DNA from: an uncultured Methanosarcinales archaeon | GTDB lineage: Archaea > Nanobdellota > Nanobdellia > Woesearchaeales > GW2011-AR9 | Direction: 5' to 3' | Length of the DNA: 53,945 nt | Assembly: GCA_964460195.1 (NCBI GenBank) | Contig: CAYWPJ010000006.1 | Location: forward strand, 1-53,945 | Shown: piece by piece, positions 5,461-50,461 of the stretch | How positions within the stretch are numbered: the stretch's first letter is position 1 | Layout of the letters: every line of letters starts with the position of its first letter | Translations under genes and position numbers: made by a program | The notes under the pieces: generated by a model | What the model saw: only the letters and a program-made list of their open reading frames with translations | Database searches by the model: none | What the model was told of the DNA's origin: nothing

Positions 5461-5515
5461 TTGGGCTTGGTTGGGGGAAGCTAAACAAACGCCCAAAAAC
5501 ATTTACACAAAAACA

Positions 5516-5523
5516 TTTATAAA
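5516..5523 (+). promoter_or_regulatory. TATA box (TTTATAAA) for the aIF2-alpha transcript
   Basis: TTTATAAA is centred about 27 nt upstream of the ATG at 5546, which suggests a leaderless mRNA. Confidence 0.55.
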
Positions 5524-5545
5524 ATACTTCCCTTCCCGGCCATAA

Positions 5546-14903: not shown

Positions 14904-14928
14904 TGTTTGCTTTTTGCAGTTACAGGTG

Positions 14929-26669: not shown

Positions 26670-27575
26670 ATGCCGATGATGAAAAAGAGCCGGAAAAGGA
26701 AAGTAATTATTTCTATCCCTGCTTACAATGAAGAGCAGACCCTCCCCAGAGTGATTAGTGAGATTAAGGAAGTGATGAAAGATTCCCCTTATCACTGGCG
26801 AATCTTAGTCCTAGATGACGGCTCTCGGGACAGGACGGCGGAAATCGCCCGGCTGTCGGGGGCCATTGTCCTATCCCACCGCCGGAACCGGGGCCTAGCC
26901 GAGGCCTTCCGCAGCGAGATGGGAGAATGCCTCAGACTGAAAGCGGAGATTATTATTCATACCGACGCTGACGGGCAGTATCTCCCCCAGCATATCCCCC
27001 AAATGATTGAAAAAGTTGAAGAAGGTTATGATTTGGTCCTGGGAAGCCGTTTCCGCGGGAGAATCCAGTCCATGCCTCTCCTGAAAAAGCTCGGAAATGT
27101 CGCTTTCTCTAAAGCTTTAAGTTCGCTGACCCGGACGAGAATCACCGACTCGACGACCGGCTTCCGGGCCTTCACGGCGGAAGTCGCTCGGGAAATAAGT
27201 TATATCAACACTTTCACTTACACGCAGGAGCAGATCATCAAGGCCGCCAAGCAGGGATTCCGGATTACTGAAATACCCATCACCGCCCGAAGAACAAGGG
27301 AAAGCCGCCTTTTTAAAAACCCCTTCCAATACGCCCTCAAGGCCTGGATTAACATCTTAAGGATTTACCGGGATTACGAGCCCCTGATGTTTTTTGGCCG
27401 CATTGGGCTGGCCCTGTTCGCTCTGGGATTGACCATTGGGGTCTGGCTGATTTATCGTTTCCTAACTTTGGGCTACATTGGGAAGATCCCGTCCACCATC
27501 CTCAGCATGCTCCTAATCCTAGTCGGGCTGCAAGTGATCGTCTTCGGCTTTTTAGCGGATATGATGAGGAAGTAA
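26670..27575 (+). CDS. Family 2 glycosyltransferase (dolichyl-phosphate hexose synthase-like) with C-terminal TM helices
   Basis: VIISIPAYNEE, LVLDDGSRD and IHTDADGQ carry the DxD. There are two C-terminal TM helices. The ATG at 26670 is chosen; the track ORF begins at 26493. Confidence 0.8.
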   Translation: MPMMKKSRKRKVIISIPAYNEEQTLPRVISEIKEVMKDSPYHWRILVLDDGSRDRTAEIARLSGAIVLSHRRNRGLAEAFRSEMGECLRLKAEIIIHTDADGQYLPQHIPQMIEKVEEGYDLVLGSRFRGRIQSMPLLKKLGNVAFSKALSSLTRTRITDSTTGFRAFTAEVAREISYINTFTYTQEQIIKAAKQGFRITEIPITARRTRESRLFKNPFQYALKAWINILRIYRDYEPLMFFGRIGLALFALGLTIGVWLIYRFLTLGYIGKIPSTILSMLLILVGLQVIVFGFLADMMRK

Positions 27576-27707
27576 ACCCTAGGAAAATGATTAAGAGGAA
27601 ATAATTAAAAAGAGATGAGGAGAATGATTATTGAAAATTATGACGAGAACCTTCGGCCGTAAACAAATTCCACACACGAAAACGGTGATTTACACAGAAA
27701 CCGGTTC

Positions 27708-28547
27708 TTATGGTGACAAAAGAGGAAGTAGATGCCTAAGATCCGATGATGGTCCTTTAGCATCAATATAATAGATACGTTCCCGCAGATCTGGGTTTGC
27801 CAGTACTTTTTCCTCAAGAAAATCCTGTAATGGTTTGTTATAATTAAAAGCTATTCCTATACCTCCCTTTTCTGCTATTCCAAGAATTCCACCACTATCC
27901 CCCATAGTGTCCCCAATATGAGCAATTTGTGCTGATGATATTTCGGGGAAATATTTTTGTGCATATTCGACAACCAACAGAGCTTTTGCAGTCTCATCAA
28001 CGATGCCTAATTCTATTATGCCGGTGGCTTGAAGAGAGTCATAAATACCACTTCTCGTTGCTTCACTATTGTTGAAATAATCTCGGACAATTTTTTCCAA
28101 TTCAACCTCATTTAACGTAGCTTGGACATCACCATCCCAACCAAATTTCAAATAATTTCCAATAAAGCCATTAATTCTGTAAAATCCAATTTGTTCCCGA
28201 ATAGAATAGAAAGTAACAGAGTATCCGGTGGAATTGATGACAAAGGGAATGCTCCTCATCCCTAATGCATTGACAAAATCAAAAAAACCTGTAACATATT
28301 CCATACGTGTCTTTGTATAATCTATTGCTTGCCGTAGTGTAAGGCCTTTAGTTAACGGGCCAGCATTAGAAAAAGCTTCTTCCATCGATGCCATGCCGGA
28401 AGTTTGTTTCTTAAAAACAGCATCTGCTTCCCTAAACTTTTCTTCACCGATGTACTGTCGAATCATATCACTCATGGTGTGTTGATGCACTAACGTTCCG
28501 TTTAAATCCGAAGAGACAAGACTGATTGGAAGTACTTTTTGTTTCAT
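27708..28547 (-). CDS. HAD-superfamily (subfamily IB-like) protein with D-x-N motif I
   Basis: Motif I is SSDLNGTLV, motif II VINSTG, motif IV IGDTMGDSGG. AT-rich. Confidence 0.55.
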   Translation of the reverse strand: MKQKVLPISLVSSDLNGTLVHQHTMSDMIRQYIGEEKFREADAVFKKQTSGMASMEEAFSNAGPLTKGLTLRQAIDYTKTRMEYVTGFFDFVNALGMRSIPFVINSTGYSVTFYSIREQIGFYRINGFIGNYLKFGWDGDVQATLNEVELEKIVRDYFNNSEATRSGIYDSLQATGIIELGIVDETAKALLVVEYAQKYFPEISSAQIAHIGDTMGDSGGILGIAEKGGIGIAFNYNKPLQDFLEEKVLANPDLRERIYYIDAKGPSSDLRHLLPLLSP

Positions 28548-28715
28548 GATGGAACAGAGAAAACAATATATTAAAAGCGAAGAACGTGAAGCTTTCTTGA
28601 ACTGCTTAAGAGTTTAGGGTCATAGACTCCTGTATGATAATACCACCCATAGATAGTATGAAGGTATAGTTATAATCATAGAAACATTTTTAAATAACTA
28701 CTCAAAAGTAGAATT

Positions 28716-30317
28716 ATGATTAGTAAATTAGCCAAATGGCTCAAACTGACGGCACAGCAAGCTACCCTTCTTCATCTTATGTATTCCCTTCAGGAACAAC
28801 ATTTACCGACAAACCCTATCTCTTTAGAAAAGGCATATCTGCAGCAAACAAAAGTATTTATCCAAAAATCAAACTTATTCACCCAGCTGAAGATTCTACA
28901 AGAGCGAGGCATTGTCACTAAAACCATTAAATCCAACTATATCCTTAATCTTCGGGGTATCCAAGAAGCATTGTTTGTGCAAAAGCAGGAGTTTACCAAA
29001 GACATTGATGAATTAAACCTTTTTATTTCAGATGCTAAAGCTTTCTTTGAGAAAATAATAAAACCAACCGGTGCTTCAGTAACGTACCTCACTGCGGAAG
29101 ATCTCTATAAAAAGTTAGCATTTAATCTTAAAAATGCAACTGCGTATTACTTTGGTTGCGATTTTCCACACTATGCATACACACTTGCATTGTGCACTAA
29201 TGCACAAGAAGCCGCGTATGTTGAAGTGCTTACAGCGAAGATACAGGACAATAATTTTTCATTATTCTGCCTTTCACCGTACCGAATAGAAAGTTTGTCC
29301 TATCGCTTACAAGAGAGGTATAAAAATAAAGAATTCATTAAGGAAGAGCTTAAAGAAGTCTGTACTCGTGCACGGGGGATAACTATTCAATATCAGAATA
29401 TAGAGCTGCGAAAATCTCCCATTCCATTCAATGTTGCTCTAATCGAAAACCCTGCTGAGGGGAATACTTTTTTTATGTTCTTAAAAGATTCAAAAGGGAT
29501 TATTACCGGCGGAATTTTCGTAAATTCCTATGAGACAACAAAACATACGAAACAACACTTTCTGACTCAACTTGGACTAAATCAAGTAATAAAAAAGAGT
29601 GAGGATTTTCCAATCTTCTCTGACACGGAATTTTTGCCAGTTCCTGAAAGTAATAGAAGAAAACTCGTCGCTTTTGATGTCAATCGTATTTTTACTGTTA
29701 ACCATACAACAGTAGAACTCGCAAACCTTGTTGGAAGAGAGAAAGCTGTATTTGGTTTTATTACAAAGCAAATAGAAGGTAATTTAAGTATGCAAGAAGC
29801 TATTTTAGAGAGTGCTCGGCTATTGAAAGGCCTATCGGTAAAAAAAATAGAATCTTTATTACCGAGCATAGCTCTGATAAAGAATGTTAAAAATGGACTT
29901 GTTAAGTTAAAAGAAGCCGGTTATTACATTCTTGCGATATCTTCAGGCTTTAGTCACTTAGTAACTCCAATCTGTAAAGATCTTGGCGTTGATGAAATTT
30001 ACTGCAACGTTTTGGGTGAAAAAGATAGAAAATTAACTGGCGAAGTCATTGAAAGAAGTGTCCTTACTGATGACGTAAAATATTATATTGTAAAATACGT
30101 TCAAGAACGCCTCTCAATACCTCCTGAGAACAGTATTGGTGTAGGAGACGGCTACTCTGATCTTCCACTACTAAAATCCTCAAAAAAGAGAATTTGCTTT
30201 AACCCGAGCAAAAAGATGAAAGAATTATTTGAGGCTGGAGATGAACGTATAACTCATCTCGTAGAAGAACCTGATTTTATGAAAGTAGTAGACTTGATTC
30301 TTGCAGATAAAGATTAA
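28716..30317 (+). CDS. wHTH (TrmB-like) N-terminal domain fused to a SerB-like HAD domain with D-x-N motif I
   Basis: The N-terminus ..LFTQLKILQERGIVTK.. is wHTH-like. The C-terminus has VAFDVNRIFT (motif I variant), AISSGFS and GVGDGYSDLPLL. Confidence 0.55.
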   Translation: MISKLAKWLKLTAQQATLLHLMYSLQEQHLPTNPISLEKAYLQQTKVFIQKSNLFTQLKILQERGIVTKTIKSNYILNLRGIQEALFVQKQEFTKDIDELNLFISDAKAFFEKIIKPTGASVTYLTAEDLYKKLAFNLKNATAYYFGCDFPHYAYTLALCTNAQEAAYVEVLTAKIQDNNFSLFCLSPYRIESLSYRLQERYKNKEFIKEELKEVCTRARGITIQYQNIELRKSPIPFNVALIENPAEGNTFFMFLKDSKGIITGGIFVNSYETTKHTKQHFLTQLGLNQVIKKSEDFPIFSDTEFLPVPESNRRKLVAFDVNRIFTVNHTTVELANLVGREKAVFGFITKQIEGNLSMQEAILESARLLKGLSVKKIESLLPSIALIKNVKNGLVKLKEAGYYILAISSGFSHLVTPICKDLGVDEIYCNVLGEKDRKLTGEVIERSVLTDDVKYYIVKYVQERLSIPPENSIGVGDGYSDLPLLKSSKKRICFNPSKKMKELFEAGDERITHLVEEPDFMKVVDLILADKD

Positions 30318-30613
30318 CCGCGATAGTGTTTAATCTGCGGGATATATTTAAATTATTCGATTTGATTAAACAGGTATATCCCTAAGAGTAAAAAAATCCA
30401 AATTCCATAACCTATTTAAACCTTGATTTAAACTTGTTTTAGAGAAAGAGAAGGGAAGCAGCAAAAAAAAGTCAGGAGGCAGCAAAAAAAGTGGCTGATC
30501 AAAAAATCAAAAACCCAATCGCAGCAAGCTGCGGGGTATGCGCTAGTCATCCCAAAAGTGATTGTGTTTTTGGTGTTTCCTCTGACATCGATGGTCACAG
30601 CAAGCTGTTGGGT

Positions 30614-32875
30614 ATGCACCCAGAGGAAACAATCAAAATCATCGTCACCTTAGGCCCTTCCTGCAATAAAGAAGAAGACCTGCGGACGATCAAAGACAAA
30701 GGAGTGGATTTCGTCCGCATCAATATGTCCCATTCTTCCCTGGAAGACTTAAAATATTTCATCGGCCTGGCAAAGAAGGCCGGCCTGGCTTTCATCATCG
30801 ACACGGAAGGATCGCAGATCCGGTCCGGTGAGCTGGCTTCCGGCTCCCTTGAACTCGAGGAAAACGACGAAGTGAAGATCTACGCCGAACCGGTTGTCGG
30901 CGATAAAACTAAGCTCTCCTTAAAGCCGGGCCAGGCGGTCCGGCAGCTGGAAGAAGGCGACCTTGTTTACATTGACTTTGACACCCTGAGCTTGAGGGTT
31001 TCCGACACTTCCACCCTTAATCAGGGCTACATTCTTGCCAAAGCCATCACTAAAGGTATCATGGACAGCAACAAAGCGGTCAGCCTGGTCTGCGGAACGG
31101 AAAAAAAGGTCTCTCTGCCGACCTTGTCCGAGAAAGACTTCCAATCCATCCAGTTAGGCCTGCAGGAAGGCATCGGCTACATCGCCGCCTCTTTCATCCG
31201 CTCGGGAAAGGCCGTCGATGAAGTCAGGCAGGCGACGCAGAACACGATGAAGATCATTTCCAAGATCGAATGCATCGAGGCGCTGGAGAACCTGGATGAA
31301 ATCATCCGCAAATCTGATTACCTTCTCATCGACCGGGGAGACCTGAGCAAGGAGATCCCCGTGGAAAAGATTCCCTTCACTCAGAACATCATCATCAGGA
31401 AAGCCCGGAAGGAAGGGGTGGGTGTTTTTGTCGCCACCAACCTTCTGGAGACAATGATTGAAAAAAAGAAACCGACCCGGGCGGAAGTTCATGACATCAT
31501 GCGGACAATCGTCGACGGAGCTGCCGGGCTGACGCTGGCCGCCGAAACCGCCATCGGCAAATATCCCATGGAATGCATCAATATGCTTAACAAGCTGATT
31601 CGGCATTCCCAGCTCCTGACCCGGCAGGGAAAGAAAGCTGAACCGGTGCCGGATTGTTTCACTGAAGCTCTGGAAAAAAATAATTATCTTCTTGATCAGG
31701 AAGTCTCTTCCTCTTTGATCCCGCCCCACGGGGGCAGATTAGTCAACCGCGTTCTGAAAAAACCGCCCGAGCCGGAATCCCTCAATTCCCTGCCCCGGCT
31801 GACCCTTCCGGAAACCGCCCAGATGGATGTTGAGCAGATTGCCATAGGCGCCTACAGCCCGATTGAAGGTTTCTTAGGCAAAGAAGACCTGCAAAATGTC
31901 CTGGACAACATGCGGCTGGCCAGCGGGATTGTCTGGCCGATTCCCATTATCTTAGATGTTCCTGAGGAAGAAGCAGCGAAACTTTCCCTGGGAAAGGACG
32001 TGCTTCTGGTCGACGGAGAGAACGAAGCCATGGCCATCCTCCACCTGGAAGAAAAATATTATTTTGACCGGCAGGAGATGGCAGGAAAGATGTACGGCAC
32101 GGAAAACGACGAGCATCCCGGCGTCAGGATGATTAGGAGCCTGAACCCGGTCTTCCTGGCCGGGAAGATTGATTTGCTCCGGCGGAGGAAGGCTGAGTTC
32201 AAAGAGTATCAGCTGACTCCCCGGCAAACTCGGAGAGTTTTCGAGGAAAGAGGCTGGGCTAAAGTCGTCGGTTTCCATACCCGCAACGTCATCCACCGCA
32301 GCCATGAATTCCTCCAGCTCCGAGCCCTGGAGAAAGAGCACGGCGACGGCTTGTTTGTCCATCCCATCGTCGGGAAAAAGAAAAAAGGTGATTTCCATGC
32401 CTCTTACATCATCAAATCATATGAAATGATGAAAAAAGATTTTTATCCAAAGGACAAGGTCGTTTTCGGCACTTTCTGCAGCTATTCCCGCTACGCCGGG
32501 CCGCGGGAATCCTTATTCACCGCCCTTTGCCGGAAGAATTTCGGCTGCAGCCACTTTATTGTCGGCCGGGACCATACCGGCGTCGGCAATTTTTACCACC
32601 CTAAAGCGGCGCACACCATCTACCAGCGGTTTCCTGACTTGGGGATCAAGCCGATTTTCTTCGACCAGGTTTTTTATTCCGGGAAGCTGGACAAATATAT
32701 CCATGAAAAAGATTCCCCTGACCATCCGGAAGAGGACAAGCGGCAAATCAGCGGGACGCAGGCCAGGGAGATGCTGGAGCGGGGAGAACTGCCGCCAGCC
32801 TGGTTCATGCGCCCGGAGATCTCCCGGATGATCGTTGACAGCCTTAAGAGGGGCGAGGAGGTTTTCGTCAGATGA
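30614..32875 (+). CDS. Fusion protein: pyruvate kinase catalytic (A/B) domains + ATP sulfurylase (sulfate adenylyltransferase)
   Basis: PK motifs: IVTLGPS, RINMSHS, KIISKIECIEALENLDEI, DRGDLSKEIP, ATNLLETM, PTRAEVHDI, AAETAIGKYP. Sat motifs: PPHGGRLV, SPIEGFL, FHTRNVIHRSHE, HPIVGKKKKGDF, GRDHTGVG. The ATG at 30614 is preferred over the GTG at 30491. Confidence 0.85.
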   Translation: MHPEETIKIIVTLGPSCNKEEDLRTIKDKGVDFVRINMSHSSLEDLKYFIGLAKKAGLAFIIDTEGSQIRSGELASGSLELEENDEVKIYAEPVVGDKTKLSLKPGQAVRQLEEGDLVYIDFDTLSLRVSDTSTLNQGYILAKAITKGIMDSNKAVSLVCGTEKKVSLPTLSEKDFQSIQLGLQEGIGYIAASFIRSGKAVDEVRQATQNTMKIISKIECIEALENLDEIIRKSDYLLIDRGDLSKEIPVEKIPFTQNIIIRKARKEGVGVFVATNLLETMIEKKKPTRAEVHDIMRTIVDGAAGLTLAAETAIGKYPMECINMLNKLIRHSQLLTRQGKKAEPVPDCFTEALEKNNYLLDQEVSSSLIPPHGGRLVNRVLKKPPEPESLNSLPRLTLPETAQMDVEQIAIGAYSPIEGFLGKEDLQNVLDNMRLASGIVWPIPIILDVPEEEAAKLSLGKDVLLVDGENEAMAILHLEEKYYFDRQEMAGKMYGTENDEHPGVRMIRSLNPVFLAGKIDLLRRRKAEFKEYQLTPRQTRRVFEERGWAKVVGFHTRNVIHRSHEFLQLRALEKEHGDGLFVHPIVGKKKKGDFHASYIIKSYEMMKKDFYPKDKVVFGTFCSYSRYAGPRESLFTALCRKNFGCSHFIVGRDHTGVGNFYHPKAAHTIYQRFPDLGIKPIFFDQVFYSGKLDKYIHEKDSPDHPEEDKRQISGTQAREMLERGELPPAWFMRPEISRMIVDSLKRGEEVFVR

Positions 32876-36400: not shown

Positions 36401-37234
36401 TTAGCTCTTCTTTATTTTCAGTTTCATTCCTTTGTCAAAACGGCCCAACATCTTTAACTGCACGTAGATCACCCGCAGCATTTTCAAAAGATAGATGGGA
36501 GTATAAACAAAAATAGCCCATTGGGGCAGGTTGACCAGGATCAGGAGAGTCATCAGATTCAAAGGATTGCTCCTCCGGAAAATGAGGAAAAGATTGATTA
36601 ATTTCTGGCTTTTGGGCCGGGTGGACAGCTTTTCTTTAATGATTAAGACTTTTTTTCTCATATCCTTTGCGTAATAAAAAGGATCAGTGATCGCCAGTTG
36701 GCTGTAAAGAATGCTGAAAGCGGCAACTAGCCCGAGGATAAGATACAGATAGTCGTCGTAAGCGAGGGACGTGCCGAGCGACAGGCAGAGGAAAAAGATC
36801 GGCCCGCCGAAATATAACCCCAACTCTTCCAGAAAGATGCCCCGATAGCTTCTGATCTTCTTTATTCTGGCCAGCTGCCCGTCGATATAGTCCAGCAGGG
36901 CGGCGGACGTGTAGAGAAGCACGCCAATGACGTTGAATTTGTATGTCCCAAAGACCATCAAGAAGGAAGCAAATAGCTGCAGGAAAACCCAAAAGGCAGT
37001 GATTTGGTTGGGGGTGATATTTGTCTTTAAGATAATTCTGGTCACGTAGAGCAGCGAATGATGCATCAGGACGCTGAACCAGGAATAATAATCTTTCTTG
37101 CAAAGTTCCCGCAGCTCGGCCATGGAAATATCTTTATAAGGCTTGGATGGATAAGGTTTAGGGGGATCTGATTTAGAAGGATGTGATTTTGAGAGGTAAG
37201 GTTTAGGCGGCTCTTTTTTGGCTGGTTTGGGCAT
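36401..37234 (-). CDS. CDP-alcohol phosphatidyltransferase family protein (divergent second half-motif)
   Basis: LLDYIDGQLAR-x8-GIFLEELGL means D1, D2, G and AR are present, D3 is Glu and D4 is absent. The N-terminus is proline/lysine-rich with PKPY/PSKS repeats. Confidence 0.65.
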   Translation of the reverse strand: MPKPAKKEPPKPYLSKSHPSKSDPPKPYPSKPYKDISMAELRELCKKDYYSWFSVLMHHSLLYVTRIILKTNITPNQITAFWVFLQLFASFLMVFGTYKFNVIGVLLYTSAALLDYIDGQLARIKKIRSYRGIFLEELGLYFGGPIFFLCLSLGTSLAYDDYLYLILGLVAAFSILYSQLAITDPFYYAKDMRKKVLIIKEKLSTRPKSQKLINLFLIFRRSNPLNLMTLLILVNLPQWAIFVYTPIYLLKMLRVIYVQLKMLGRFDKGMKLKIKKS

Positions 37235-37909: not shown

Positions 37910-38933
37910 CGACGATAAGAGTACAGTCTATCTAGGTGAATCCGCCCTGTCCGGGAAGCAGGCTTTGCTGGCGAAAGCAGCTCAAGGGATATACCCCACA
38001 GAAGAAGCGCCTTGCTCTATCTGCCAGAGCGGCCATTTTAAAGTCCTTTCCAAAAAGGAGCGAAGAGGAATCCCCTTATCCGTAGTTATCTGCCAGAATT
38101 GCGGTTTGGTCCAAGCTAACCCCCGGTTGGATAAGGAAGCTTACGTCCAGTTTTATAACAACGAATACGAGCTGCTTCAAGCTGAAGCAGACGGAGAAAA
38201 TGAAACTTTCTTCAGCATCGAACGGAAGCGGGGGAAAAAAATTTATGAATTTCTAAAAGGACAGCTGGGAAGGGGAATTAAGGATAAATTTATCGTCGAG
38301 ATTGGTGCCGGGGCCGGGGGGATTCTCTCTTATTTTCAGGAACAGGGAAACGAGGTTTACGGTCTCGACTTGGGAGAGGAATATGTTAGATTTGGCCAAA
38401 AGAAAGGTGTCCGCCTGGAGGTAGGGGGGATAGAAAAACTTAAGCAGCTAAAGAAAAAACCTTACTTAGTCATCTACAATCACGTTTTGGAGCATCTTCT
38501 CGATCCTCTTAAAGAATTGCAAGAGGTAAAAAAACACCTGAGAGAAGGAACTTTTTTGTACCTCGCTGTACCGGGAATTAAAAACATCCCTTACTCCCAT
38601 CAATCAGACTTTCTAAAATACTTAACCATCACTCACGTCAATTATTTCACTAAGACAACTGTATCTAATTTGTTTAAGATGGCCGGGGGGTTAAGAATTG
38701 TCCATGTTGATGAAAAAATAGAAGCCTTCCTCCAGCTGGATTCAAGGGTTAAACCGAACAAGATTCAAAACGACTATGAGTCCTGCTGGGAATTTCTTCA
38801 GAAGCTTGAAAATAGCCGACCAGGGAATTTTTCCTGGCAAAGGATTAAAAACGCTCTGATGAACTTTTTAAAGAGAATAGGGCTGTACCGTTATTTAAAA
38901 TCGGCTTATTCCAAAATAAGCAATTTCCTATAA
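37887..38933 (+). CDS. Class I SAM-dependent methyltransferase with N-terminal Cys4 zinc ribbon
   Basis: CSICQS..x..CQNCG, then motif I VEIGAGAGG and YGLDLGEE. The ATG at 37887 is preceded by GGTGAGGT; the track ORF begins at 37833. Confidence 0.7.
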   Translation: MLSERYINDDKSTVYLGESALSGKQALLAKAAQGIYPTEEAPCSICQSGHFKVLSKKERRGIPLSVVICQNCGLVQANPRLDKEAYVQFYNNEYELLQAEADGENETFFSIERKRGKKIYEFLKGQLGRGIKDKFIVEIGAGAGGILSYFQEQGNEVYGLDLGEEYVRFGQKKGVRLEVGGIEKLKQLKKKPYLVIYNHVLEHLLDPLKELQEVKKHLREGTFLYLAVPGIKNIPYSHQSDFLKYLTITHVNYFTKTTVSNLFKMAGGLRIVHVDEKIEAFLQLDSRVKPNKIQNDYESCWEFLQKLENSRPGNFSWQRIKNALMNFLKRIGLYRYLKSAYSKISNFL

Positions 38934-39079
38934 CGGAAGACATAATTATTTATACAAATTAGTTATGTCTTCCGAATATAGTAACTGATACTTTGTATAA
39001 ATATTTAAGTCAGTTACTATATAACAAAAACCGCACTAATCCCGGACAATTTTCAATAAACAAATGTCTGTCAAGACAA

Positions 39080-40366
39080 TTACAAAAGATAATCACCTTC
39101 CAAGAAATGCTGCAGCACTTCCCGGCAATATTCCTCATTCATCTCCTTGACGTCGACGACCGTAAATCTTCCTTTCTTCATCCCATAACTCCGGCAGCGC
39201 TGCATCGCCGCGACGGCCTGCTCGGGGCTCAAACCAATCTCTTCAAGGGAAAGGGGCAAACCCAGGCGGGCAACCAAACGATTAATCTCACTAATTTCAC
39301 GACTATCTCTTCCCTGCACATAGCTCATCAGCTGGGAGCCTAGGGCGACCAGCTCGCCATGCAAGGGCGGGCAGGCAAAACCTTCCTCTGCCTCCTTGGC
39401 AAAGAGATGCTCCGAACCGCTGGCCGGAGCGCTCCCGACCCAGCCAGTGATATGGCAAAGAAGCACCTGATGGAAAACATAATCGGCAATCCATTCCGCC
39501 AGCGGCCGGCGGGAGTCAACCTGTCCCAGCCAGTCAAGCGTCCCACGGCACATGTCAATAACAACCTCATTTGTTTTAGCCCGGCCATATTTTTCAGCGA
39601 GCTTCCAGTCCTCAACCGCCGTCGTATAAGCCATCAAATCGCCTAATCCAGCTCTGATCAGGCGGGGGTTGTTTTCCTGGAGCCCTTCAAGGAAATTAGT
39701 GTCGACCAAAGCCAAATTAGGAACGGTTCCATCAATCGTTTTTTCATGGCCTAATTCTTTGATCGCCGGCAGACAATGAATTTTGGGAGAAGCATAAACG
39801 TGGCTCGCTAAACTGGTGGGAACAGCGATCGTGAAATTCCCCGCCTGCATCTGCACGTATTTGAGGATGTCCATAACCCTTCCCCCGCCGATGCCGATGA
39901 GACGGCTTTCCCGGCTCTCCGCAGTAGCGGTGATGATTTCCTGTAAATCCCTTCCGCTGAGGGCATCAATCAGATAAACCCGGCTCCGGTTGAAGATGCC
40001 GGAACCGAAAGATTCCCGGAAGAGGGAATGGACATTCCGGTCAGTGATGACAATAGCGGAATTCATCTCCGGAACGATTTTCTGAATCATCCCCTGTCCG
40101 ACAACTACTTCCTCAGAGATATAACTCCCGACAGGAAGATTCCGGAGCAAATCTTCTTTTAAATGCTCTTTTTTCTGCCCCTCTATCCCTTGCGGCCGGA
40201 GAAAAGTTTTTTGCCAGATCTCCTCGAGCTCGGCTCGTTTCCGCAAAGACAAGTCATCGTTTGAAAGATAAAGCCGCTCGTGCAGCCCCAGCAGGTAGCT
40301 TCCCAGCCGGGTTCTCCGGATAATTTCCCTGGGCACGAAAAGGGAAGAAGGAAGTCCCTCAGCCAT
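39080..40366 (-). CDS. egsA: sn-glycerol-1-phosphate dehydrogenase family (EgsA/AraM-like) with about 80-aa N-terminal extension
   Basis: GIGGGRVMDILKY, AVPTSLASH, GLGDLMAYTTAVEDWKLA, SAPASGSEHLFAKE and PLHGELVALG align by eye with archaeal G1PDH. Confidence 0.75.
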   Translation of the reverse strand: MAEGLPSSLFVPREIIRRTRLGSYLLGLHERLYLSNDDLSLRKRAELEEIWQKTFLRPQGIEGQKKEHLKEDLLRNLPVGSYISEEVVVGQGMIQKIVPEMNSAIVITDRNVHSLFRESFGSGIFNRSRVYLIDALSGRDLQEIITATAESRESRLIGIGGGRVMDILKYVQMQAGNFTIAVPTSLASHVYASPKIHCLPAIKELGHEKTIDGTVPNLALVDTNFLEGLQENNPRLIRAGLGDLMAYTTAVEDWKLAEKYGRAKTNEVVIDMCRGTLDWLGQVDSRRPLAEWIADYVFHQVLLCHITGWVGSAPASGSEHLFAKEAEEGFACPPLHGELVALGSQLMSYVQGRDSREISEINRLVARLGLPLSLEEIGLSPEQAVAAMQRCRSYGMKKGRFTVVDVKEMNEEYCREVLQHFLEGDYLL

Positions 40367-40446
40367 TTTTCAACATCACTCCTTTCGGCATCACTCCGGA
40401 ACTGAGGCTCAATAATTTTATAAACCTTGTGAAAAAGAGGGTAAGG

Positions 40447-41295
40447 ATGAAGGAAGAGGCAGTAGAAATTCGAGAAGAGGCAGCAGAAACTCCCCGGCCC
40501 GAAGCAAAAAAAGTAGAGGAAATCAACCTCAAAAAAGCAGAGGAAGTCAACATTAAAGAAGCAGGAGAAATCGACATCAGTCAGTTCAGCCGGACAAAAA
40601 AAAAGTTTGCGCTGGTATGCCAAAACGATATTCCTTATTTAATCAAGGAAATCAGCCTTAAAAACCTGGCCGGCAAACATTCCCTTCAATTTTTCTATGA
40701 GCAGATTTTGGAATATATCTACCTCATCCGGCAGGCCGGGATTCCCCTTCCGGAGATAGCTGAACATTCTCGGAAAGATGACAAACTGTCTTTTACCTGC
40801 CGGTACCACGGGAAAAATTTCCTCCAGCTGGCCCAAAATCCGGCCAGGCTTGTCGGGGAAATGCTGCCTTTGGTGAAAAAAGCCGTGCGCATCCTGCGGC
40901 AGGCACAGGAAGCAAACCTCTCCCTGGACCCCAACCTTAAGTACTTTTGTTCTGACGAAGAGGGGAAAGTTTATTTTGTTGATTTTTCCCCCCCTTACGG
41001 GCTGGACTACCGGGAGCAGAACTATGATCAAATAGTCATCAGGGCCACGGCGCCAGAGCACCAGGCAATCGTCGCCCAAAACTTAGAGTGCTTTAAGCCG
41101 GAAAATTTAGGGTTTCATTTCGCCGGCGATTTGCTGAAAGAAGATCCGGCCTATGAAGAGATCATGCCCGGCCTATACCAGCTCTTGGTGGAAGAGAGAG
41201 TTGTTTCGGTTCCCTACCATGAATTCCTGCAGAGGGCCCATCAGGTCAAAAAGATTGAATTGGACCGGATTGGCCGCGGTCTCCGGCTGAGCTGA
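40447..41295 (+). CDS. Hypothetical protein (acidic N-terminus; possible kinase-like fold, unproven)
   Basis: ATG at 40447; the track start at 40429 is GTG. LSLDPNLKYF..KVYFVDFSPP only vaguely recalls kinase catalytic and DFG-like segments. Confidence 0.4.
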   Translation: MKEEAVEIREEAAETPRPEAKKVEEINLKKAEEVNIKEAGEIDISQFSRTKKKFALVCQNDIPYLIKEISLKNLAGKHSLQFFYEQILEYIYLIRQAGIPLPEIAEHSRKDDKLSFTCRYHGKNFLQLAQNPARLVGEMLPLVKKAVRILRQAQEANLSLDPNLKYFCSDEEGKVYFVDFSPPYGLDYREQNYDQIVIRATAPEHQAIVAQNLECFKPENLGFHFAGDLLKEDPAYEEIMPGLYQLLVEERVVSVPYHEFLQRAHQVKKIELDRIGRGLRLS

Positions 41296-41430
41296 GGGTG
41301 CCAAGGGGCTTTAGACCCACTAATTCTTTGTAAAGTACCGACCGCAATGAATTAAATGCCGTTAAGTCCTCGGGGCTTTAAGCGAGCCAGACTAAAATTT
41401 GTTTATCAGATATCTGGCGAGCGTGCCCCG

Positions 41431-41454
41431 ACGAGGAGCATAGCGACGAAGAGT
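41431..41454. repeat. 24-nt motif copy B (ACGAGGAGCATAGCGACGAAGAGT)
   Basis: 22/24 identical to 6571..6594. It directly abuts the outer IR arm at 41454. Confidence 0.7.
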
Positions 41455-41468
41455 AAAATTTGAGTTCT
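41454..41468. repeat. Outer inverted-repeat arm, left (TAAAATTTGAGTTCT)
   Basis: Perfect 15/15 reverse complement of 42116..42130. Confidence 0.85.
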
Positions 41469-41500
41469 CATTGGTTTTGTTTAAAGAAATAAGTATAGTG

Positions 41501-41511
41501 GGGGAAGTTCT
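41501..41511. repeat. Inner inverted-repeat arm, left (GGGGAAGTTCT)
   Basis: Perfect 11/11 reverse complement of 42093..42103. It lies upstream of the TATA box. Confidence 0.8.
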
Positions 41512-41528
41512 CAATATTGGGGGTAATC

Positions 41529-41538
41529 TTTATATAAA
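41529..41538 (+). promoter_or_regulatory. TATA box (TTTATATAAA) for ORF 41560
   Basis: Centred about 26 nt upstream of the ATG (leaderless geometry). Confidence 0.55.
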
Positions 41539-41559
41539 AGTAGTAATTTTTATTGTTTT

Positions 41560-42093
41560 ATGGGGGATGAATTATATAGGGCGATTTTGGAAAGAGTAAA
41601 GTTAGTTCCTAATGTTCATATTAGAAAGGATTATTTTATTCCAACAGAAACAAAACTTGATCTCCCAGACATTGTAGGTAACACAACGTATAATGGGTAT
41701 GATGTTCATTGCAGTACTACTTGTGAGGTTATTGTTGGATTTGACACCAGAACAGAAAGAGTAAAAAAATTTGGTTTTCTTCCGTGGGGAAAACGAGAAG
41801 AACCTCTTGCAAGCTTGGACGATATTAGAGAAGAATTGGCAAGTGTTCCAGAAATTGGAGAACCATTAAGTCATAATGAACGCTTCTTGGTTTATGAGAG
41901 AAAGGTAGGAACAGGAGTTTCATTAAAGTTGTTTGATTTAGTTGTTGTTGGCGTAGGGTCTTTCTTAGGTCAACACTGTGAAGCTATCCAACAATGGGAT
42001 GGACAACGTTTTGGAGCTTACGAATGGTTAAAGATTGATACTCCATTTGCCGCACAGTTGAAGCAGGCTCATGTAGCGAGTTACGGACGATAA
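41560..42093 (+). CDS. Hypothetical protein (AT-rich cassette ORFan)
   Basis: 177-aa ORF, no motif recognised, flanked by nested perfect inverted repeats. Confidence 0.5.
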   Translation: MGDELYRAILERVKLVPNVHIRKDYFIPTETKLDLPDIVGNTTYNGYDVHCSTTCEVIVGFDTRTERVKKFGFLPWGKREEPLASLDDIREELASVPEIGEPLSHNERFLVYERKVGTGVSLKLFDLVVVGVGSFLGQHCEAIQQWDGQRFGAYEWLKIDTPFAAQLKQAHVASYGR

Positions 42094-42103
42094 GAACTTC
42101 CCC
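42093..42103. repeat. Inner inverted-repeat arm, right (AGAACTTCCCC)
   Basis: Overlaps the last base of the stop codon TAA (42091-42093). Confidence 0.8.
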
Positions 42104-42115
42104 TACGTACTTCTT

Positions 42116-42130
42116 AGAACTCAAATTTTA
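42116..42130. repeat. Outer inverted-repeat arm, right (AGAACTCAAATTTTA)
   Basis: Perfect reverse complement of 41454..41468. Confidence 0.85.
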
Positions 42131-42134
42131 TTGG

Positions 42135-42152
42135 ACATAATTTAAATTATGT
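42135..42152. repeat. Perfect 18-bp palindrome ACATAATTTAAATTATGT
   Basis: Self-complementary over all 18 nt. It lies 5 nt outside the outer IR arm. Confidence 0.8.
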
Positions 42153-42316
42153 TGAATCCCGGATATTTTAAGGGTATAAGGCCTGAAAGGAAGGAATTTC
42201 GCATCTCGTAATCAAATAACCCCAAACTACCCATTAGTAGATTTAACGTGAACCATTGCGGGCCTCTGCGGCTCAACCACACCCAATGTTCTGGTGCACC
42301 CGCTTGTAAAGAAGAT

Positions 42317-43528
42317 TCAGCAGCAGAAACTTCTCATCTGCTCGAGATTGTCCTTAAACGTTCCGGCTTTAAACAGTCCGGAAGTTCCGCCGACAAAAAT
42401 CCTCGCTCCCGCCTGGTAGAGATGGGGCAGGGTTCTTGGCCCGACCGAGCCGTCAACCATAATGGAAACCGGCTGTGCGTGCTCCCGGGCGTATTCGCTG
42501 AAAGCCCGGATGCGCTCAATGACGGAAGGAACAAATTCGTTGCCCTTAAACCCCGGTTCGACACCCATGAAGAGAACCAGACTAATCTTTCCCAGGAAAG
42601 GGTATAATTTTTCCACCGGCGTCCCGGGATTAATGGCCAGCCCGGCTTTCATCCCTCTGGCTTTGATATCGTCAAGAACGCCGTCAATGCCCGCTTCACT
42701 TTCCAGATGGACGATGACAATGTCCGCGCCGGCTTCCGCCAGGCGGGAGATGTAAGAGGCAGGGTATTTAACCATCAGATGAACATCAATCGGCAGGTAG
42801 GTGTGGGACCTTAAGGCGGCGATATGATCGATGTTCAGGGAAATATTGCGGCTGAAATCGCCGTCGATAATATCGATGTGGAACATATCGACATCGGCTT
42901 CAGCTAGTTTTCTGATGTCATCAAGCAGATGAAGCTGGTTGGCGCACATCAGCGAAGCGGAGATTTTCACTTCCCGGCCCCGGGTGTCATTCAACATGGC
43001 TGAGGAGAGGATCTCTCCGGAACTTTGGTCCCGGCCTTCGATGATATGCTTTTCGATGATGGAAATCTGGTTTCTCCGCCTCTGATGCCTTTCCCCTTCG
43101 GCTTCAGTGAAAAGCCAGGTTCTGACGATTTCTTTCGCCTGCTGGCTGGAGAGGTGGCCGGCCCCCAAAGCGAGGATGTTGCTGTCGGTATGCCGGCGGC
43201 TTAACTCGGCCACTTCATGATTGTAAGCCAGGGCGGCTCGGATACGGGGGAACTTATTGTCGACGATGGAGACTCCCACCCCGGTTTTACAGACGACAAT
43301 TCCCCTTCGGTACTGTCCTTTGGATACTTTGTCGGCGACGGAAAGGGCATAGATGGGGAAATCAACGCTTTCTTGAGAATAAGTACCCAAGTCCAGGGGC
43401 TGGAAACCGAGCTGGGTGAGATACTGCTTGAGTTCCTCTTTAAGCTCAAAAGCCGGGTGGTCACTGGCGATAGGTATGACTTCGGGCATGACCTCTTTTG
43501 TCATGATGGGGAAGGCCGGACAGAGCAT
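42317..43528 (-). CDS. Fusion protein: ribose-5-phosphate isomerase B (N) + ribulose-phosphate 3-epimerase family (C)
   Basis: RpiB motifs: IPIASDHPAFELKEEL, GIVVCKTGVGVSIVDNKFPRIRAAL, RRHTDSNILALG, EGERHQRR. Rpe motifs: SASLMCAN, FHIDIIDGDF, IDVHLMV, MGVEPGFKG, MVDGSV. Start could be 43528, 43504 or 43489. Confidence 0.85.
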   Translation of the reverse strand: MLCPAFPIMTKEVMPEVIPIASDHPAFELKEELKQYLTQLGFQPLDLGTYSQESVDFPIYALSVADKVSKGQYRRGIVVCKTGVGVSIVDNKFPRIRAALAYNHEVAELSRRHTDSNILALGAGHLSSQQAKEIVRTWLFTEAEGERHQRRRNQISIIEKHIIEGRDQSSGEILSSAMLNDTRGREVKISASLMCANQLHLLDDIRKLAEADVDMFHIDIIDGDFSRNISLNIDHIAALRSHTYLPIDVHLMVKYPASYISRLAEAGADIVIVHLESEAGIDGVLDDIKARGMKAGLAINPGTPVEKLYPFLGKISLVLFMGVEPGFKGNEFVPSVIERIRAFSEYAREHAQPVSIMVDGSVGPRTLPHLYQAGARIFVGGTSGLFKAGTFKDNLEQMRSFCC

Positions 43529-49628: not shown

Positions 49629-50461
49629 TCCCCGCCCAGCCGCAGGCTGACCACCCTTTTGAAATAGACCCAGCCGAATTTCAGCAGCGAGGTTAAACTG
49701 CCGGCCGTCTTTGAGCTGCCTTCCAGGCGGTCAATAAAATAATAAGGCACTTCTTTGATTTTATATCCTTTCCGCCCGGCCCGGTAAAGAAAGGCAATGC
49801 AATATTCCCCATAAGTAGAATCGGGCAGGGGGAGCTGGGCCAGGACTTCCCGTCTGGCGGCAATGAAACCGCTGGTGTAATCTAAAACCTTAAAGTTAAG
49901 GATGAAGTTGGCCGCCAGGTTGATCATCCGGCTGGTGACTAAACGCAGCCTTGGCCGGAGATCCTTTCCTCCCTGGGCATACCTCGAAGCGACGGCAATA
50001 TGATTGTTCTCCAGCTCGGCGAGAAGCCGGGGAATGGTTTCGGGAGGCATGGATAAGTCGGCATCCATCCAAACAATAAATTTTCCCTTCGACTCGGCGA
50101 TGCCCCGTTTCAGTGAATTTGCCAGGCCCTTATTTTCTGTCCTCCGGATGACCCTGACCCCTTTCTCTTTGTGCCCGGCACCTGCCGCGATCTGCCAGGT
50201 TTTGTCAGGGCTGTCGTCGTCGATGACAATGATTTCTTTACGGCGCCCGGTGAGAGCCCGATCAATCCTTTCGATTAAATGGGTGATATTACCGGACTCG
50301 TTATAGGTCGGCAGGATAACTGAGATTTCCACTTCCTCTTTTATTCCATCTTTTACTCCCTTGTTTACCTCCTCTTTTATCTCATCTTTTACCCAGCTTT
50401 TTACTTCATCCTTTACTCCACCTTTTACTTCACCTTCTCCCTTCAACTCTTTGCTTTTCAT
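49625..50461 (-). CDS. Family 2 glycosyltransferase (polyprenyl-phosphate hexose synthase-like) with Lys/Glu/Val repeat N-terminus
   Basis: SVILPTYNE, IVIDDDSPD, WMDADLS and YTSGF. The N-terminal 45 aa are VKD/E-x-V/I-K repeats. Confidence 0.85.
   Translation of the reverse strand: MKSKELKGEGEVKGGVKDEVKSWVKDEIKEEVNKGVKDGIKEEVEISVILPTYNESGNITHLIERIDRALTGRRKEIIVIDDDSPDKTWQIAAGAGHKEKGVRVIRRTENKGLANSLKRGIAESKGKFIVWMDADLSMPPETIPRLLAELENNHIAVASRYAQGGKDLRPRLRLVTSRMINLAANFILNFKVLDYTSGFIAARREVLAQLPLPDSTYGEYCIAFLYRAGRKGYKIKEVPYYFIDRLEGSSKTAGSLTSLLKFGWVYFKRVVSLRLGGE

Follow-up and report, generated by a model that had tools for sequence, protein, structure and literature searches.

The window, i.e. the whole 53,945-nt stretch of DNA that was analysed, had an archaeal context with intron-bearing tRNAs. 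As shown in Table 1, an ORF for a 177-aa protein was preceded by a TATA-like sequence and a leaderless-spaced ATG, and was enclosed by two nested pairs of inverted repeats. The ORF lay between two convergent genes (40429–41295 on the + strand and 42317–43528 on the − strand). An earlier note on this DNA had described such a cassette between convergent host genes, with the inner repeat sharing the last base of the stop codon, and all of these features were confirmed. Both repeat pairs were also perfect, as it had reported: 41454–41468 with 42116–42130, and GGGGAAGTTCT (41501–41511) with AGAACTTCCCC (42093–42103; 11/11).

Table 1. Positions of the cassette features and junction sites in the window
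Feature	Position	Strand	Sequence	Remark
Degenerate left half-site	41346–41360	+	AATGAATTAAAT + GCC	Directly before R' box
R' box (GTTRRRY type)	41361–41369	+	GTTAAGTCC	Cassette 5' boundary; exchange point within GTTA
5' module	41370–41453	+	...GACGAAGAG	Imperfect hairpin, then the sequence given; travels with the cassette (common to L001)
Left arm, middle tier	41454–41468	+	TAAAATTTGAGTTCT	15/15 with 42116–42130
Inner left arm	41498–41511	+	GTGGGGGAAGTTCT	G-rich inner-tier repeat; pairs with 42093–42106
TATA-like sequence	41529–41538	+	TTTATATAAA	21 nt before ATG (leaderless spacing)
Cargo ORF, 177 aa	41560–42093	+		ATG at 41560, stop at 42091–42093
Inner right arm	42093–42106	+	AGAACTTCCCCTAC	Overlaps last base of stop codon (42093)
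Right arm	42116–42130	+	AGAACTCAAATTTTA	Last A is first base of dif-like site
dif-like/minimal attC-like site	42130–42157	+	ATTGGACATAA-TTTAAA-TTATGTTGAAT	11-6-11 layout
R'' box	42133–42141	+	GGACATAAT	Inside dif-like site
Perfect 18-bp palindrome	42135–42152	+	ACATAATTTAAATTATGT	Centre of dif-like site
Next R' box	42151–42157	+	GTTGAAT	Inside dif-like site

The inner pair could be extended to 14 nt at 93% (41498–41511/42093–42106). The 15-mers were the only perfect inverted repeat of ≥15 nt with a 50–1500-nt loop in the 54-kb window, where shuffled sequences gave an average of 0.07. When the flanks were shuffled, a repeat of ≥15 nt occurred in 0 of 2000 cases and one of ≥11 nt in 30 of 2000, in agreement with the note's view that the repeats exceeded chance. 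As for a dispersed repeat, neither arm recurred in the window beyond chance.

The ORF had no match in Pfam, PHROG, NCBIfam or a PDB sequence profile, Pfam was also negative for 21 family members, and an exact-sequence look-up of the window ORF returned no record. It was not an ORFan in the strict sense, as previously thought: its relatives comprised five close homologs and ~29 distant clusters, none of known family or fold. Remote homology searching and structure prediction, which had been suggested, yielded a confident AF2 model (pLDDT 87.8) and no known family or fold; none of the structural neighbours of this model was significant, and the only ones were Pol-beta-like (E ~0.02, TM ~0.3). 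The ORF had dN/dS ratios of 0.15–0.44 and appeared to be cargo under purifying selection. The TATA-like block was largely invariant in an alignment of all homolog upstream regions and is probably a promoter. One distant homolog occurred without any arms.

Extent and setting of the mobile unit

Comparison with 11 related loci placed a mobile unit of ~790 bp at ~41362–42151, from a GTTRRRY box to a 28-bp dif-like site. The window and locus L001 shared 91% identity over 780 bp (41361–42140) and had unrelated flanks, indicating that the unit continued past each arm, as far as the R' box on the left and into the dif-like site on the right. The homology began exactly at the R' box, which precedes the left arm by 93 nt, and stopped inside the dif-like site, 10 nt past the right arm. 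Thus, the 15-mers were not the termini that the note had taken them for, and the palindrome that it had placed outside the right arm was part of the element's recombination site. Loci L003 and L004 were identical through the cassette and its hairpin site to ...CCTGTTA, and unrelated beyond. The exchange point was located within TAAC...GTTA, no finer, and two comparisons gave conflicting answers as to the side with which the central hairpin moves. The G|TT rule put the 3' end of the cassette at 42151.

The site at 42130–42157 was identical to the dif sequence of Pyrococcus abyssi (PMC2958812) at 18 of 28 positions (10 of 11 in the left arm) and to that of E. coli at 21 of 28. In the window copy, the boxes at 41361 and 42151 read GTTAAGT and GTTGAAT, and the R'' box was a mutated one (ACATAAT). 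The right site was good, and the left site combined a good right arm with a degenerate left arm. This degenerate half-site matched the family consensus TTGAAYWTAAY at 8 of 11 positions, occupied the position of TTGAACCTAAC-GAT in L001, and might perhaps be the host-side or an older half of the left junction. The hairpin of the 5' module was formed by CGGGGC (41371–41376) pairing with GCCCCG (41425–41430); when this 93-nt module was searched as a tRNA fragment or an att site within a tRNA gene, ARAGORN and Rfam gave no match.

The GC content was 32–42% in the cassette and ~52% in the flanks; the cassette unit is foreign and AT-rich. In a syntenic distant relative (54% identity), which had neither intergenic DNA nor a dif-like site at this locus, the two convergent genes overlapped by 4 nt, versus a spacing of 1,021 nt in the window. 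The AT-rich island between the two host genes is likely to be a captured cassette. Neither a circular junction nor an exact empty site was seen, this distant relative being the sole “empty” comparison.

The window copy was a lone cassette with no recombinase gene nearby, and its sole ORF, the 177-aa protein, had no recombinase domain. Since neither a tyrosine recombinase nor a second good site was found within the 54-kb window, activity of this copy is only putative. The cassette may be fixed in place, because the left half-site is degenerate and the R'' box carries two changes (7/9).

Cassette family and linked recombinases

Searching for further copies gave both arms and ORF homologs in other loci. 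At least 17 cassettes of the same build, including that of the window, were found in 12 loci, most of them by searching with the arm sequence itself, which determined their ascertainment. At least 16 further cassettes carried unrelated cargo, and the cargo was as small as 92-aa membrane proteins and as large as a block of six genes spanning 5.3 kb. A scan of a genome collection gave L010 and L011 plus two chance matches in bacterial coding sequences (L009 and L012), and 6 of the 13 matches in a metagenome scan were by chance. Four motif scans of IMG/VR for association with viruses or plasmids gave nothing or chance matches in coding regions.

The left arm was identical in L001 and L003–L006 despite near-saturated synonymous sites (dS 0.95), and the arms therefore appeared to be under strong constraint. 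The same arm bounded unrelated cargo in L011, L015, L017, L018, L019, L021, L024 and L025. Two concerns of the earlier note could thereby be set aside: the 15-mer was not a widespread repeat unrelated to ORF boundaries, being always a cassette boundary element elsewhere, and an assembly artefact was excluded, because in many independent assemblies the same arms enclosed cargo, whether homologous or different. The right arm directly abutted (A)TTGNNNNTAAY in all family cassettes, and perfect repeats of ≥12 nt ended at TTGNNNNTAAY-type motifs in 12 of 38 cases versus 73 of 21000 random positions. In every family cassette, the left arm was immediately preceded by a hairpin module with a purine-rich ...AG motif at its end, mostly CCG[CA]A[AG]AG but also variants such as GACGGAG and GAGAGAG; a shared module type contained four compensatory pairs, and none was broken.

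Arm pairs were perfect over 10–17 nt in most cassettes and imperfect in a few. The L025 array contained five different arm sequences. As the arms differed within one array and each pair was perfectly complementary, the conserved feature appeared to be pairing and not a site for a sequence-specific protein. In all cassettes the left arms started T-rich and the right arms ended A-rich; several arms had no run of five or more T. The inner left arm was kept in all loci with ORF homologs except L008, with a compensatory change of C:G to T:A in L007, and most other cassettes with this arm allele also had an inner pair of G4-5/C4-5. The repeats were nested in three tiers, the R'/R'' box pair (outer, resembling the ends of integron cassettes), the 15-mers (middle) and the 11/14-mers (inner), and, taking the cassette ends as reference, cargo was encoded on one strand or the other.

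As judged from their sequences, the cassettes were delimited by dif-like/attC-like sites consisting of an RYYYAAC box, a short central region or hairpin, and a GTTRRRY box (e.g. ACTTAAC...GTTAAGT and GTTTAAC...GTTATAT). They appeared circularly permuted at the exchange point, with their own GTTRRRY box at the 5' end and a complementary RYYYAAC box at the 3' end. In 11 of the 17 tabulated cassettes, R'' was complementary to the 5' R' of its own cassette at all nine positions, and in three more at eight of nine (9/9 in L001, 7/9 in the window copy); its match to the R' immediately downstream was weaker (6–8/9) in 14 of the 17. The central regions of the junctions varied from 5 to ~170 nt. Long sites of the form R''-ATC-L''-loop-L'-T-R' were present in L003, L017, L018, L019 and L030, and the window site and many others were only 24–28 nt; an attC of integrons spans ~55–141 nt and has R and L boxes, extrahelical bases, an unpaired spacer and a variable loop. 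All junction sites had the same orientation along the arrays.

Tandem cassette arrays were anchored beside genes predicted to encode XerA-type tyrosine recombinases. The same conserved hairpin site lay 200–350 nt upstream of XerA-type genes in L019, L029 and L030, and AT-rich DNA of cassette type lay on its far side. Complete cassettes could be resolved in L019 and L030, and only a cassette-type right end in L029; the L031 contig appeared to break inside this site, which was kept together with an XerA-type gene in three loci, probably four. The L001 array ended 1.4 kb from a recombinase gene. A strict filter (perfect arms of ≥11 nt) gave no arrays beside recombinase homologs; manual reading there gave the conserved platform site together with 10-nt or imperfect arms. 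The array-linked recombinases aligned end to end with P. abyssi XerA (4a8e) and skipped ~50 aa of IntI4. Their best NCBIfam model was XerA_Arch, and they scored 167–192 against TIGR02249 (cut-off 265), in two stretches. None of the five recombinases tested (array-adjacent or near, plus close homologs) had the IntI additional domain, and all were below the cut-off for integron integrases. The window segment 41362–42151 is probably a mobile gene cassette that belongs to an integron-like system of site-specific recombination in DPANN (Woesearchaeota-type) archaea.

Single-strand folding and alternative explanations

The circularised junction, folded as single-stranded DNA, formed one branched hairpin of −40.4 kcal/mol (z = −6.8), a fold that follows from the repeats by construction. 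The top strand had 27 hairpins with C-GNA-G triloops, where 3.2 ± 1.9 were expected, and the bottom strand had 2; GNRA loops were not enriched, and the window's own cassette had no GNA hairpin with a stem of ≥4 bp. GNA triloops are classic stable DNA mini-hairpins (PMC13037366, PMC3201870). Mini-hairpins of this kind are typical of single-stranded DNA and are strongly enriched on the top strand. In the module hairpin and the degenerate arms, wobble pairs worked only on the top strand; for the degenerate arms this direction was seen in 5 of 5 cases (p ~0.08), which is only a hint.

A mechanism can be proposed in which an XerA-type recombinase encoded elsewhere in the genome would excise and insert the cassette in circular form. 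Circularisation would bring the three repeat tiers to either side of the recombination core, where they would zip up into a single long, branched hairpin, which might present or stabilise the core as a folded top-strand single-stranded substrate, as attC is folded in integrons. Perfect complementarity would be kept by selection for the fold or by stem repair, and the window cassette would express its 177-aa cargo from its own promoter. We infer a role of the arms in recombination from these arrangements. Tentatively, the system could be a DPANN “proto-integron”, in which a housekeeping-type XerA, with a hairpin-bearing dif-like site beside its gene, would capture and shuffle cassettes via folded top-strand single-stranded DNA rich in GNA mini-hairpins; the private clamp repeats would zip the two ends of a cassette together around the core, and the system would be intermediate between Xer/dif and integrons.

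An IMEX at the chromosomal dif was considered as an alternative; 42130–42157 would then be the true dimer-resolution site, host XerA would have been hijacked by the element, and the arms would be dif-flanking accessory repeats as in Thermococcales. The 11-6-11 layout and the identities to both dif sequences fit this explanation, as do the convergent genes, a local maximum of the cumulative GC skew near 42–45 kb, the lack of a recombinase in the cassette and the XerA-type scores of the array-linked enzymes; adjacency of dif and xer is known for the XerS/difSL module (PMC5357621), and inverted repeats on both sides of archaeal dif sites are reported by Cortez et al. However, the skew was noisy and followed gene orientation, with no clean inversion over 54 kb, the anchored site of the relatives adjoined a recombinase gene that was absent from the window, and the syntenic relative had no site at the locus. 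Moreover, junction centres of such variable length are unlike a classical double-stranded dif, and the integrated arms flanked the cargo, not the site, and differed between neighbouring cassettes; an IMEX at dif is therefore unlikely. It is very unlikely that the unit is a canonical archaeal integron cassette (IntI with the additional domain, and attC) beside which XerA-type genes lie by coincidence. The boxes, the permutation and the variable hairpin sites do follow integron logic, and Ghaly et al. 2022 (PMC9668308) list attC clusters of Woesearchaeales, but the tested recombinases lacked the IntI domain, the platform hairpin site was conserved together with the XerA-type gene, many sites were only 24–28 nt long, and the cargo had its own promoter and lay in either orientation. 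Published archaeal integrons are described as having the same structure as those of bacteria, which have no cassette-flanking arms. Reading the arms themselves as a canonical attC was rejected, because the two arms at one junction belonged to different cassettes and were not complementary.

Other alternatives concerned the repeats. If the unit is still a recombination cassette and the arms are symmetric signals (oligo-T terminators/insulators or sites for a dimeric accessory protein), their T-rich starts and A-rich ends would stop archaeal transcription entering from either side, and the conservation of this arm allele across hosts would be expected. Such a terminator or insulator needs no perfect, cassette-specific complementarity of 12–17 nt, though, the arms without a run of five T are at odds with it, and an array with five different arm sequences speaks against recognition by one sequence-specific protein, which makes this a rather unlikely explanation. 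Pairing at the RNA level, as processing stems of the kind found around archaeal rRNAs or as 5'–3' stability pairing in a long read-through array transcript, is highly improbable: both left arms lay upstream of the conserved TATA box and the leaderless ATG, the cargo orientation was mixed, Rfam gave no match, the spacings of 32 and 12 nt gave no bulge-helix-bulge geometry, the enriched loops were of the DNA-type GNA and not the GNRA type, and the boundaries behaved as DNA recombination joints. Covarying complementarity alone would fit RNA as well as single-stranded DNA, the top strand was the sense strand of the recombinase gene in L019, L029, L030 and L001, and RNA would have G.U pairs at the T.G positions; nevertheless, the note's view of a DNA unit rather than an mRNA structure was upheld. 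Perfect, terminal-looking repeats flanking an AT-rich single-gene unit in different genomic contexts would also suit a MITE-like element or a TIR transposon that ends at the 15-mers and has the 177-aa protein as its transposase or as a passenger. Such an element, which the note implied, is scarcely credible and was contradicted by the homology running past the arms by 93 nt and 10 nt and by the lack of a target-site duplication beside 41454 or 42130, where the note had proposed to look; nothing pointed to transposition, and the layout was one of cassettes for site-specific recombination. In addition, bases outside the arms were conserved family-wide (...AG left, TTGNNNNTAAY right), arms differed within one array, most cassettes encoded no candidate transposase, and the ORF had no transposase signature.

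Comparison with integrons and Xer/dif systems

The integron-like cassette system shared with integrons (IntI/attC) its tandem arrays of small accessory-gene cassettes beside a tyrosine recombinase gene, the RYYYAAC inverse-core and GTTRRRY core boxes bounding the recombination site, and a core box carried by each cassette at its 5' start (permutation at the exchange point). The sites were likewise conserved in structure over sequence, with variable hairpin centres and evidence of one-strand folding. Unlike in integrons, the recombinase was XerA-type without the IntI additional domain and, in the orientation used here, lay 3' of the cassettes, many sites collapsed to a 24–28-nt dif-like sequence, and a 5' hairpin module, a private arm pair and an inner G-rich pair flanked the cargo. 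The cargo had its own promoter and occurred in both orientations, whereas integron cassettes are mostly promoterless and in one orientation. The available part of Ghaly et al. 2022 (PMC9668308) holds no description of the hairpin module, the arm pair or the inner G-rich pair.

With Xer/dif and IMEXs the system had in common a 28-bp 11-6-11 site near archaeal and bacterial dif, the lack of an internal recombinase and an XerA-like enzyme, and, as in difSL-xerS, the site adjoined the recombinase gene. CTX-phi builds its Xer site from a folded single strand. Unlike IMEXs (CTX-phi, TLC-phi, GGI), of which no report in archaea was found in the literature, the system comprised arrays of many small non-viral cassettes; unlike Xer/dif, it had central regions of variable length or with hairpins, and its box complementarity was cassette-specific. 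The pdif modules of Acinetobacter are similar in that accessory genes bounded by Xer-type sites are shuffled between replicons without a dedicated recombinase. The pdif sites, however, are inverted and are the sole boundary feature, whereas the sites here were direct and the inverted repeats were separate, cassette-specific and just inside the sites.

Integron finders keyed to IntI and attC length would probably miss this system, which would give DPANN archaea, a group with poorly known mobile elements, a way to exchange genes. Integron integrases and Xer recombinases are close kin, and the core boxes of attC are similar to dif half-sites. The XerA-type enzyme, the sites grading from plain 28-bp dif-like sequences to attC-like hairpins, and the cassette-specific clamps give concrete sequences for testing the origin of integrons from an Xer-like ancestor and the formation of cassettes and sites; recombination of folded single strands by XerA, and clamps driving excision or re-integration, are testable on them. 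If the proposal is true, the proto-integron would stand, as a living intermediate, between integrons and the resolution of chromosomes by Xer/dif.

Nested repeats around a 177-aa ORF

The coordinates given in an earlier note for two nested inverted-repeat pairs (the arms), a TATA-like element, an ATG, an ORF, a palindrome and the convergent genes on both sides of the cassette were all borne out on re-reading (Table). Apart from the 15-mer pair, the whole window contained no perfect inverted repeats of 15 nt or longer with loops of 50–1500 nt (shuffle mean 0.07), and the arms were not a dispersed repeat within it. Shuffling of the flanks gave a 15-mer repeat in 0 of 2000 trials, agreeing with the note's view that the arms were beyond chance, and reached 11 nt in 1.5% of them. 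The inner pair lengthened to 14 nt at 93% match. GC content of the cassette was 32–42% versus ~52% in the surroundings. The repeat feature is genuine, non-random and far above chance.

Table. Features of the window and recurrent elements of related cassettes
Feature	Sequence	Position	Remark
Outer left arm	TAAAATTTGAGTTCT	41454–41468	15/15 with outer right arm
Outer right arm	AGAACTCAAATTTTA	42116–42130	15/15 with outer left arm
Inner left arm	GGGGAAGTTCT	41501–41511	11/11 with inner right arm
Inner right arm	AGAACTTCCCC	42093–42103	11/11 with inner left arm
TATA-like element	TTTATATAAA	41529–41538	21 nt upstream of ATG
177-aa ORF		ATG 41560, end 42093	
Palindrome		42135–42152	perfect, 18 bp
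dif-like site	ATTGGACATAA-TTTAAA-TTATGTTGAAT	42130–42157	11-6-11 Xer-site layout
tRNA gene with intron		11867–12018	152 nt, Rfam
tRNA gene with intron		14928–15067	140 nt, Rfam
Arms of other cassettes	TTCAGAATTAGACCAAA, TAAATCTGGAGTCC, TTTTTTCGGGGGC, TTCGTTCATCACC, TTTGAAAACTCC, TTTTTGTCCCACC, TTTTGACGGC		
Conserved platform hairpin site	...TTAAC-ACCAATTATATGG...CCATATATTGGTG-TTATT	200–350 nt upstream of recombinase gene	
C-GNA-G triloop hairpins, examples	GTCCGAAGGAC, GTGCGAAGCAC, GGGCGAAGCCC		

Two intron-bearing tRNA genes, detected by Rfam but missed by ARAGORN, indicated that the window was archaeal. Tandem repeats with a 12-nt period (CT-rich, at least 7 copies) and a 15-nt period (50331–50438 and 37143–37219) are probably coding repeats unrelated to the cassette. 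Further AT-rich stretches of the window (~47% GC) lay at 27000–31500 (GC 0.39–0.40) and 38800–39100 (GC 0.28–0.32), and neither showed a junction motif with arms.

No match to the ORF came from the Pfam, PHROG or NCBIfam models. Among 5.8 billion proteins searched there were five homologs (69–89% BLASTP identity), two from Woesearchaeota MAGs and some others from groundwater metagenomes, with a different gene neighbourhood at every locus. The further copies that the note had suggested looking for were found: homolog loci L001 (89% identity) and L003–L006 (69%) kept both 15-mers exactly and retained the inner pair. The outer arms were decayed or missing in L002, L007 and L008, and the inner pair of L007 carried a compensatory C:G to T:A change. 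The ORF evolves under purifying selection, with a dN/dS of 0.15–0.44. Between the window and L003, dS was 0.95 (synonymous sites near saturation) and the inter-arm spacer was unalignable, yet both arms were identical, which points to constraint on the arm sequence as such. About 29 clusters of distant homologs came out of an exhaustive HMM search, and one distant homolog lay at a locus without arms. AlphaFold supplied with these clusters gave a confident alpha/beta model (pLDDT 87.8) with no significant structural neighbours, the best being Pol-beta palm domains (E ~0.02, TM ~0.3). The ORF product is treated here as cargo with no function assigned.

Ends of the unit and junctions of a cassette family

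Homology between the window and L001 covered 41361–42140 (91% over 780 nt) between unrelated flanks, beginning at GTTAAGTCC, 93 nt before the left arm, and stopping within sequence right of the right arm; thus the 15-mers, contrary to what the earlier note implied, are not the ends of the unit. In L027, a distant relative (neighbour protein 54% identical), the local gene order was kept and the convergent genes overlapped by 4 nt, whereas the same pair was 1,021 nt apart in the window.

Genome and metagenome collections were scanned for the left junction (AGAG followed by the 15-mer), which was also present in L011, L015, L017, L018, L019, L021, L024 and L025, besides chance matches within coding regions. 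Cargo differed in every locus, e.g. two unknown ORFs beside mutL, TrmB-type regulators, a radical-SAM protein, a DUF2127 membrane protein, a 1,145-aa helicase-like protein and a six-gene metabolic block. Beside the ORF homolog of L001, a cassette (4894–6055) contained a nucleotidyltransferase gene (NTP_transf_2/Polbeta Pfam matches, 196-aa product) adjoining an unannotated 176-aa ORF; the two might form a toxin-antitoxin-like pair, which is a typical class of integron cargo.

Longer loci were tandem arrays of cassettes with cassette-specific, mostly perfect arm pairs of 10–17 nt. Upstream of the left arm there was always a hairpin module with a purine-rich ...AG end (mostly CCG[CA]A[AG]AG), and directly downstream of the right arm always (A)TTGNNNNTAAY, which was found at the end of 12 of 38 perfect repeats 12 nt or longer versus 73 of 21000 random positions. 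Inter-cassette junctions shared one design: an RYYYAAC box (R''), ~3 nt, a palindrome or hairpin that could be absent or as long as ~170 nt, a T and a GTTRRRY box (R'). The shortest were dif-like with a central region of 5–6 bp, and the longest resembled attC with R and L boxes. In L018 (flipped, left junction on the + strand), an IS-type DDE transposase gene (DUF772/DDE_Tnp_1; 1809–3446) lay inside the array immediately past a long junction hairpin, a position reminiscent of insertion sequences with dif or attC sites as their targets.

The R'' 9-mer after the right arm was a perfect complement of the 5′ R' 9-mer of its own cassette in 11 of 17 cassettes, an 8/9 complement in three further ones and 7/9 in the window, L024 and L011; its match to the next box downstream was weaker (6–8/9, in 14 of 17). 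L003 and L004 contained the same cassette, identical as far as ...CCGTAAAATTCCTGTTA and unrelated beyond. These results indicated a circular permutation of the unit, with the exchange point inside the core box, the same as in integron cassettes. Since the R'/R'' boxes form the outer of three repeat tiers, the two pairs first noticed are the middle and inner tiers. The long hairpin site of the cassette common to L003 (1333–1365) and L004 (1003–1065) differed at its tip only, a segment being replaced within an otherwise identical stem, which suggests that variation or recombination also acts at a second level, within the hairpin loop.

The window's R'' had two substitutions (GGACATAAT in place of GGACTTAAC), and these produced the perfect 18-bp palindrome. 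Positions 42130–42157 were identical at 18 of 28 positions (left arm 10/11) to the P. abyssi dif, predicted by Cortez et al. and used as a XerA substrate in PMC2958812, and at 21 of 28 to E. coli dif (E. coli sequence verified). Because this stretch reads as a Xer site, the palindrome, present but formerly placed outside the right arm, belongs to the element as the centre of its recombination site. The 160 nt that separate the dif-like site from the right host gene (42158–42316) included an R''-like AGATTTAAC (42239–42247), complementary at 7 of 9 positions to the box GTTGAATCC (position 42151); this stretch could be a decayed cassette without a gene. Directly after the left host gene's stop, GGGGCTTTAGACCCACTAATTCTTTG (41305–41330) resembled the start of the 5′ module GGGGCTTTAAGCGAGCCAGACTAAAATTTG (41372–41401); it may be what is left of a previous module or cassette, and may be the "24-nt motif" of the earlier note.

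Recombinases at the array ends

The window itself contained neither a tyrosine recombinase nor another site of the junction type. Arrays ended near recombinase genes in L019 (~200 nt), L030, L029 and L001 (1.4 kb), and the L031 contig seemed to break within the hairpin site. The recombinases of L019, L029 and L030 were 62–73% identical mutually, and in all three loci the platform hairpin site lay between AT-rich cassette-type DNA and high-GC housekeeping genes. Complete cassettes could be delimited in L019 and L030; L029 yielded just a cassette-type right end.

The array-linked recombinases were of 266–285 aa. That of L019 aligned end to end with P. abyssi XerA (4a8e) and in two parts with IntI4 (2a3v), skipping ~50 residues at the IntI-specific domain. 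XerA_Arch was the top NCBIfam model for all five recombinases tested (199–222 bits, cut-off 220), and the integron-integrase model scored well under its cut-off. The C-terminal tail of the L019 protein (residues 251–261, SSTFAGLPNPY), past the end of the XerA alignment, aligned with the IntI4 C-terminal tail, which hints at a place between XerA and IntI.

Proposed folded single strands, rival readings and known systems

In an integrated array, the arms flanking one junction came from different cassettes and were not complementary; in an excised circle, the three tiers of a cassette would flank its single core. Folding the circularised window junction as single-stranded DNA gave a single long hairpin with branches (-40.4 kcal/mol, z = -6.8), an outcome that the repeats impose by construction. 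The L025 array contained five different arm sequences, making a single sequence-specific protein site unlikely; the conserved property of the arms is complementarity. In non-coding cassette ends of L001, L003, L015, L017–L019, L021, L024, L025 and L030, GNA-triloop hairpins closed by C:G numbered 27 (20 distinct sequences) on the top strand versus 3.2 ± 1.9 in shuffles, and 2 on the bottom strand; GNRA tetraloops were not enriched in such ends, and the window's own cassette had no GNA hairpin whose stem reached 4 bp. DNA mini-hairpins with a d(GNA) triloop and a closing C:G pair are a classic case of extraordinary stability (PMC13037366, PMC3201870), and their strand-specific excess lends independent support to a single-stranded stage. 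A module hairpin shared among cassettes had four compensatory pairs, none broken, and one T.G pair, functional on the top strand only. We therefore propose recombination of a folded top strand, in which a XerA-type enzyme would recombine the folded sites and the arms would pair to close the circle's site as a stable hairpin. This role of the arms as clamps is tentative, at best an even call.

The window unit is very probably a site-specific recombination cassette of this integron-like family; it is a lone copy, possibly immobilised. An IMEX sitting at a genuine chromosomal dif is unlikely: in relatives the anchored site adjoins a recombinase gene, absent from the window; GC skew across the 54 kb gave no clean inversion. 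A canonical IntI integron is disfavoured, as the recombinase tests go against it. An RNA structure formed by the repeats is likewise disfavoured by the promoter position, the mixed cargo orientation, the DNA-type loops and the lack of an Rfam match. Symmetric terminator or insulator signals may contribute, given the T-rich outer ends of the arms, but would leave the perfect cassette-specific complementarity unexplained. A TIR transposon was contradicted by the unit boundaries and by the absence of a target-site duplication outside the arms, where the earlier note had advised looking for one.

The family is best filed as an integron-like cassette system with a XerA-type recombinase and dif-like sites. 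The literature searched held no description of cassette-specific complementary end repeats and no link of XerA to attC or cassette arrays. Published archaeal integrons are described (PMC9668308) as possessing an IntI with the additional domain and an array structure as in bacteria; the dataset of that study includes other Woesearchaeales MAGs and none of those found here. The recombinases tested here lack the IntI-specific domain, in contrast to those integrons. In IntI/attC integrons the attC bottom strand is folded, whereas here folding of the top strand and a XerA-type enzyme are proposed.
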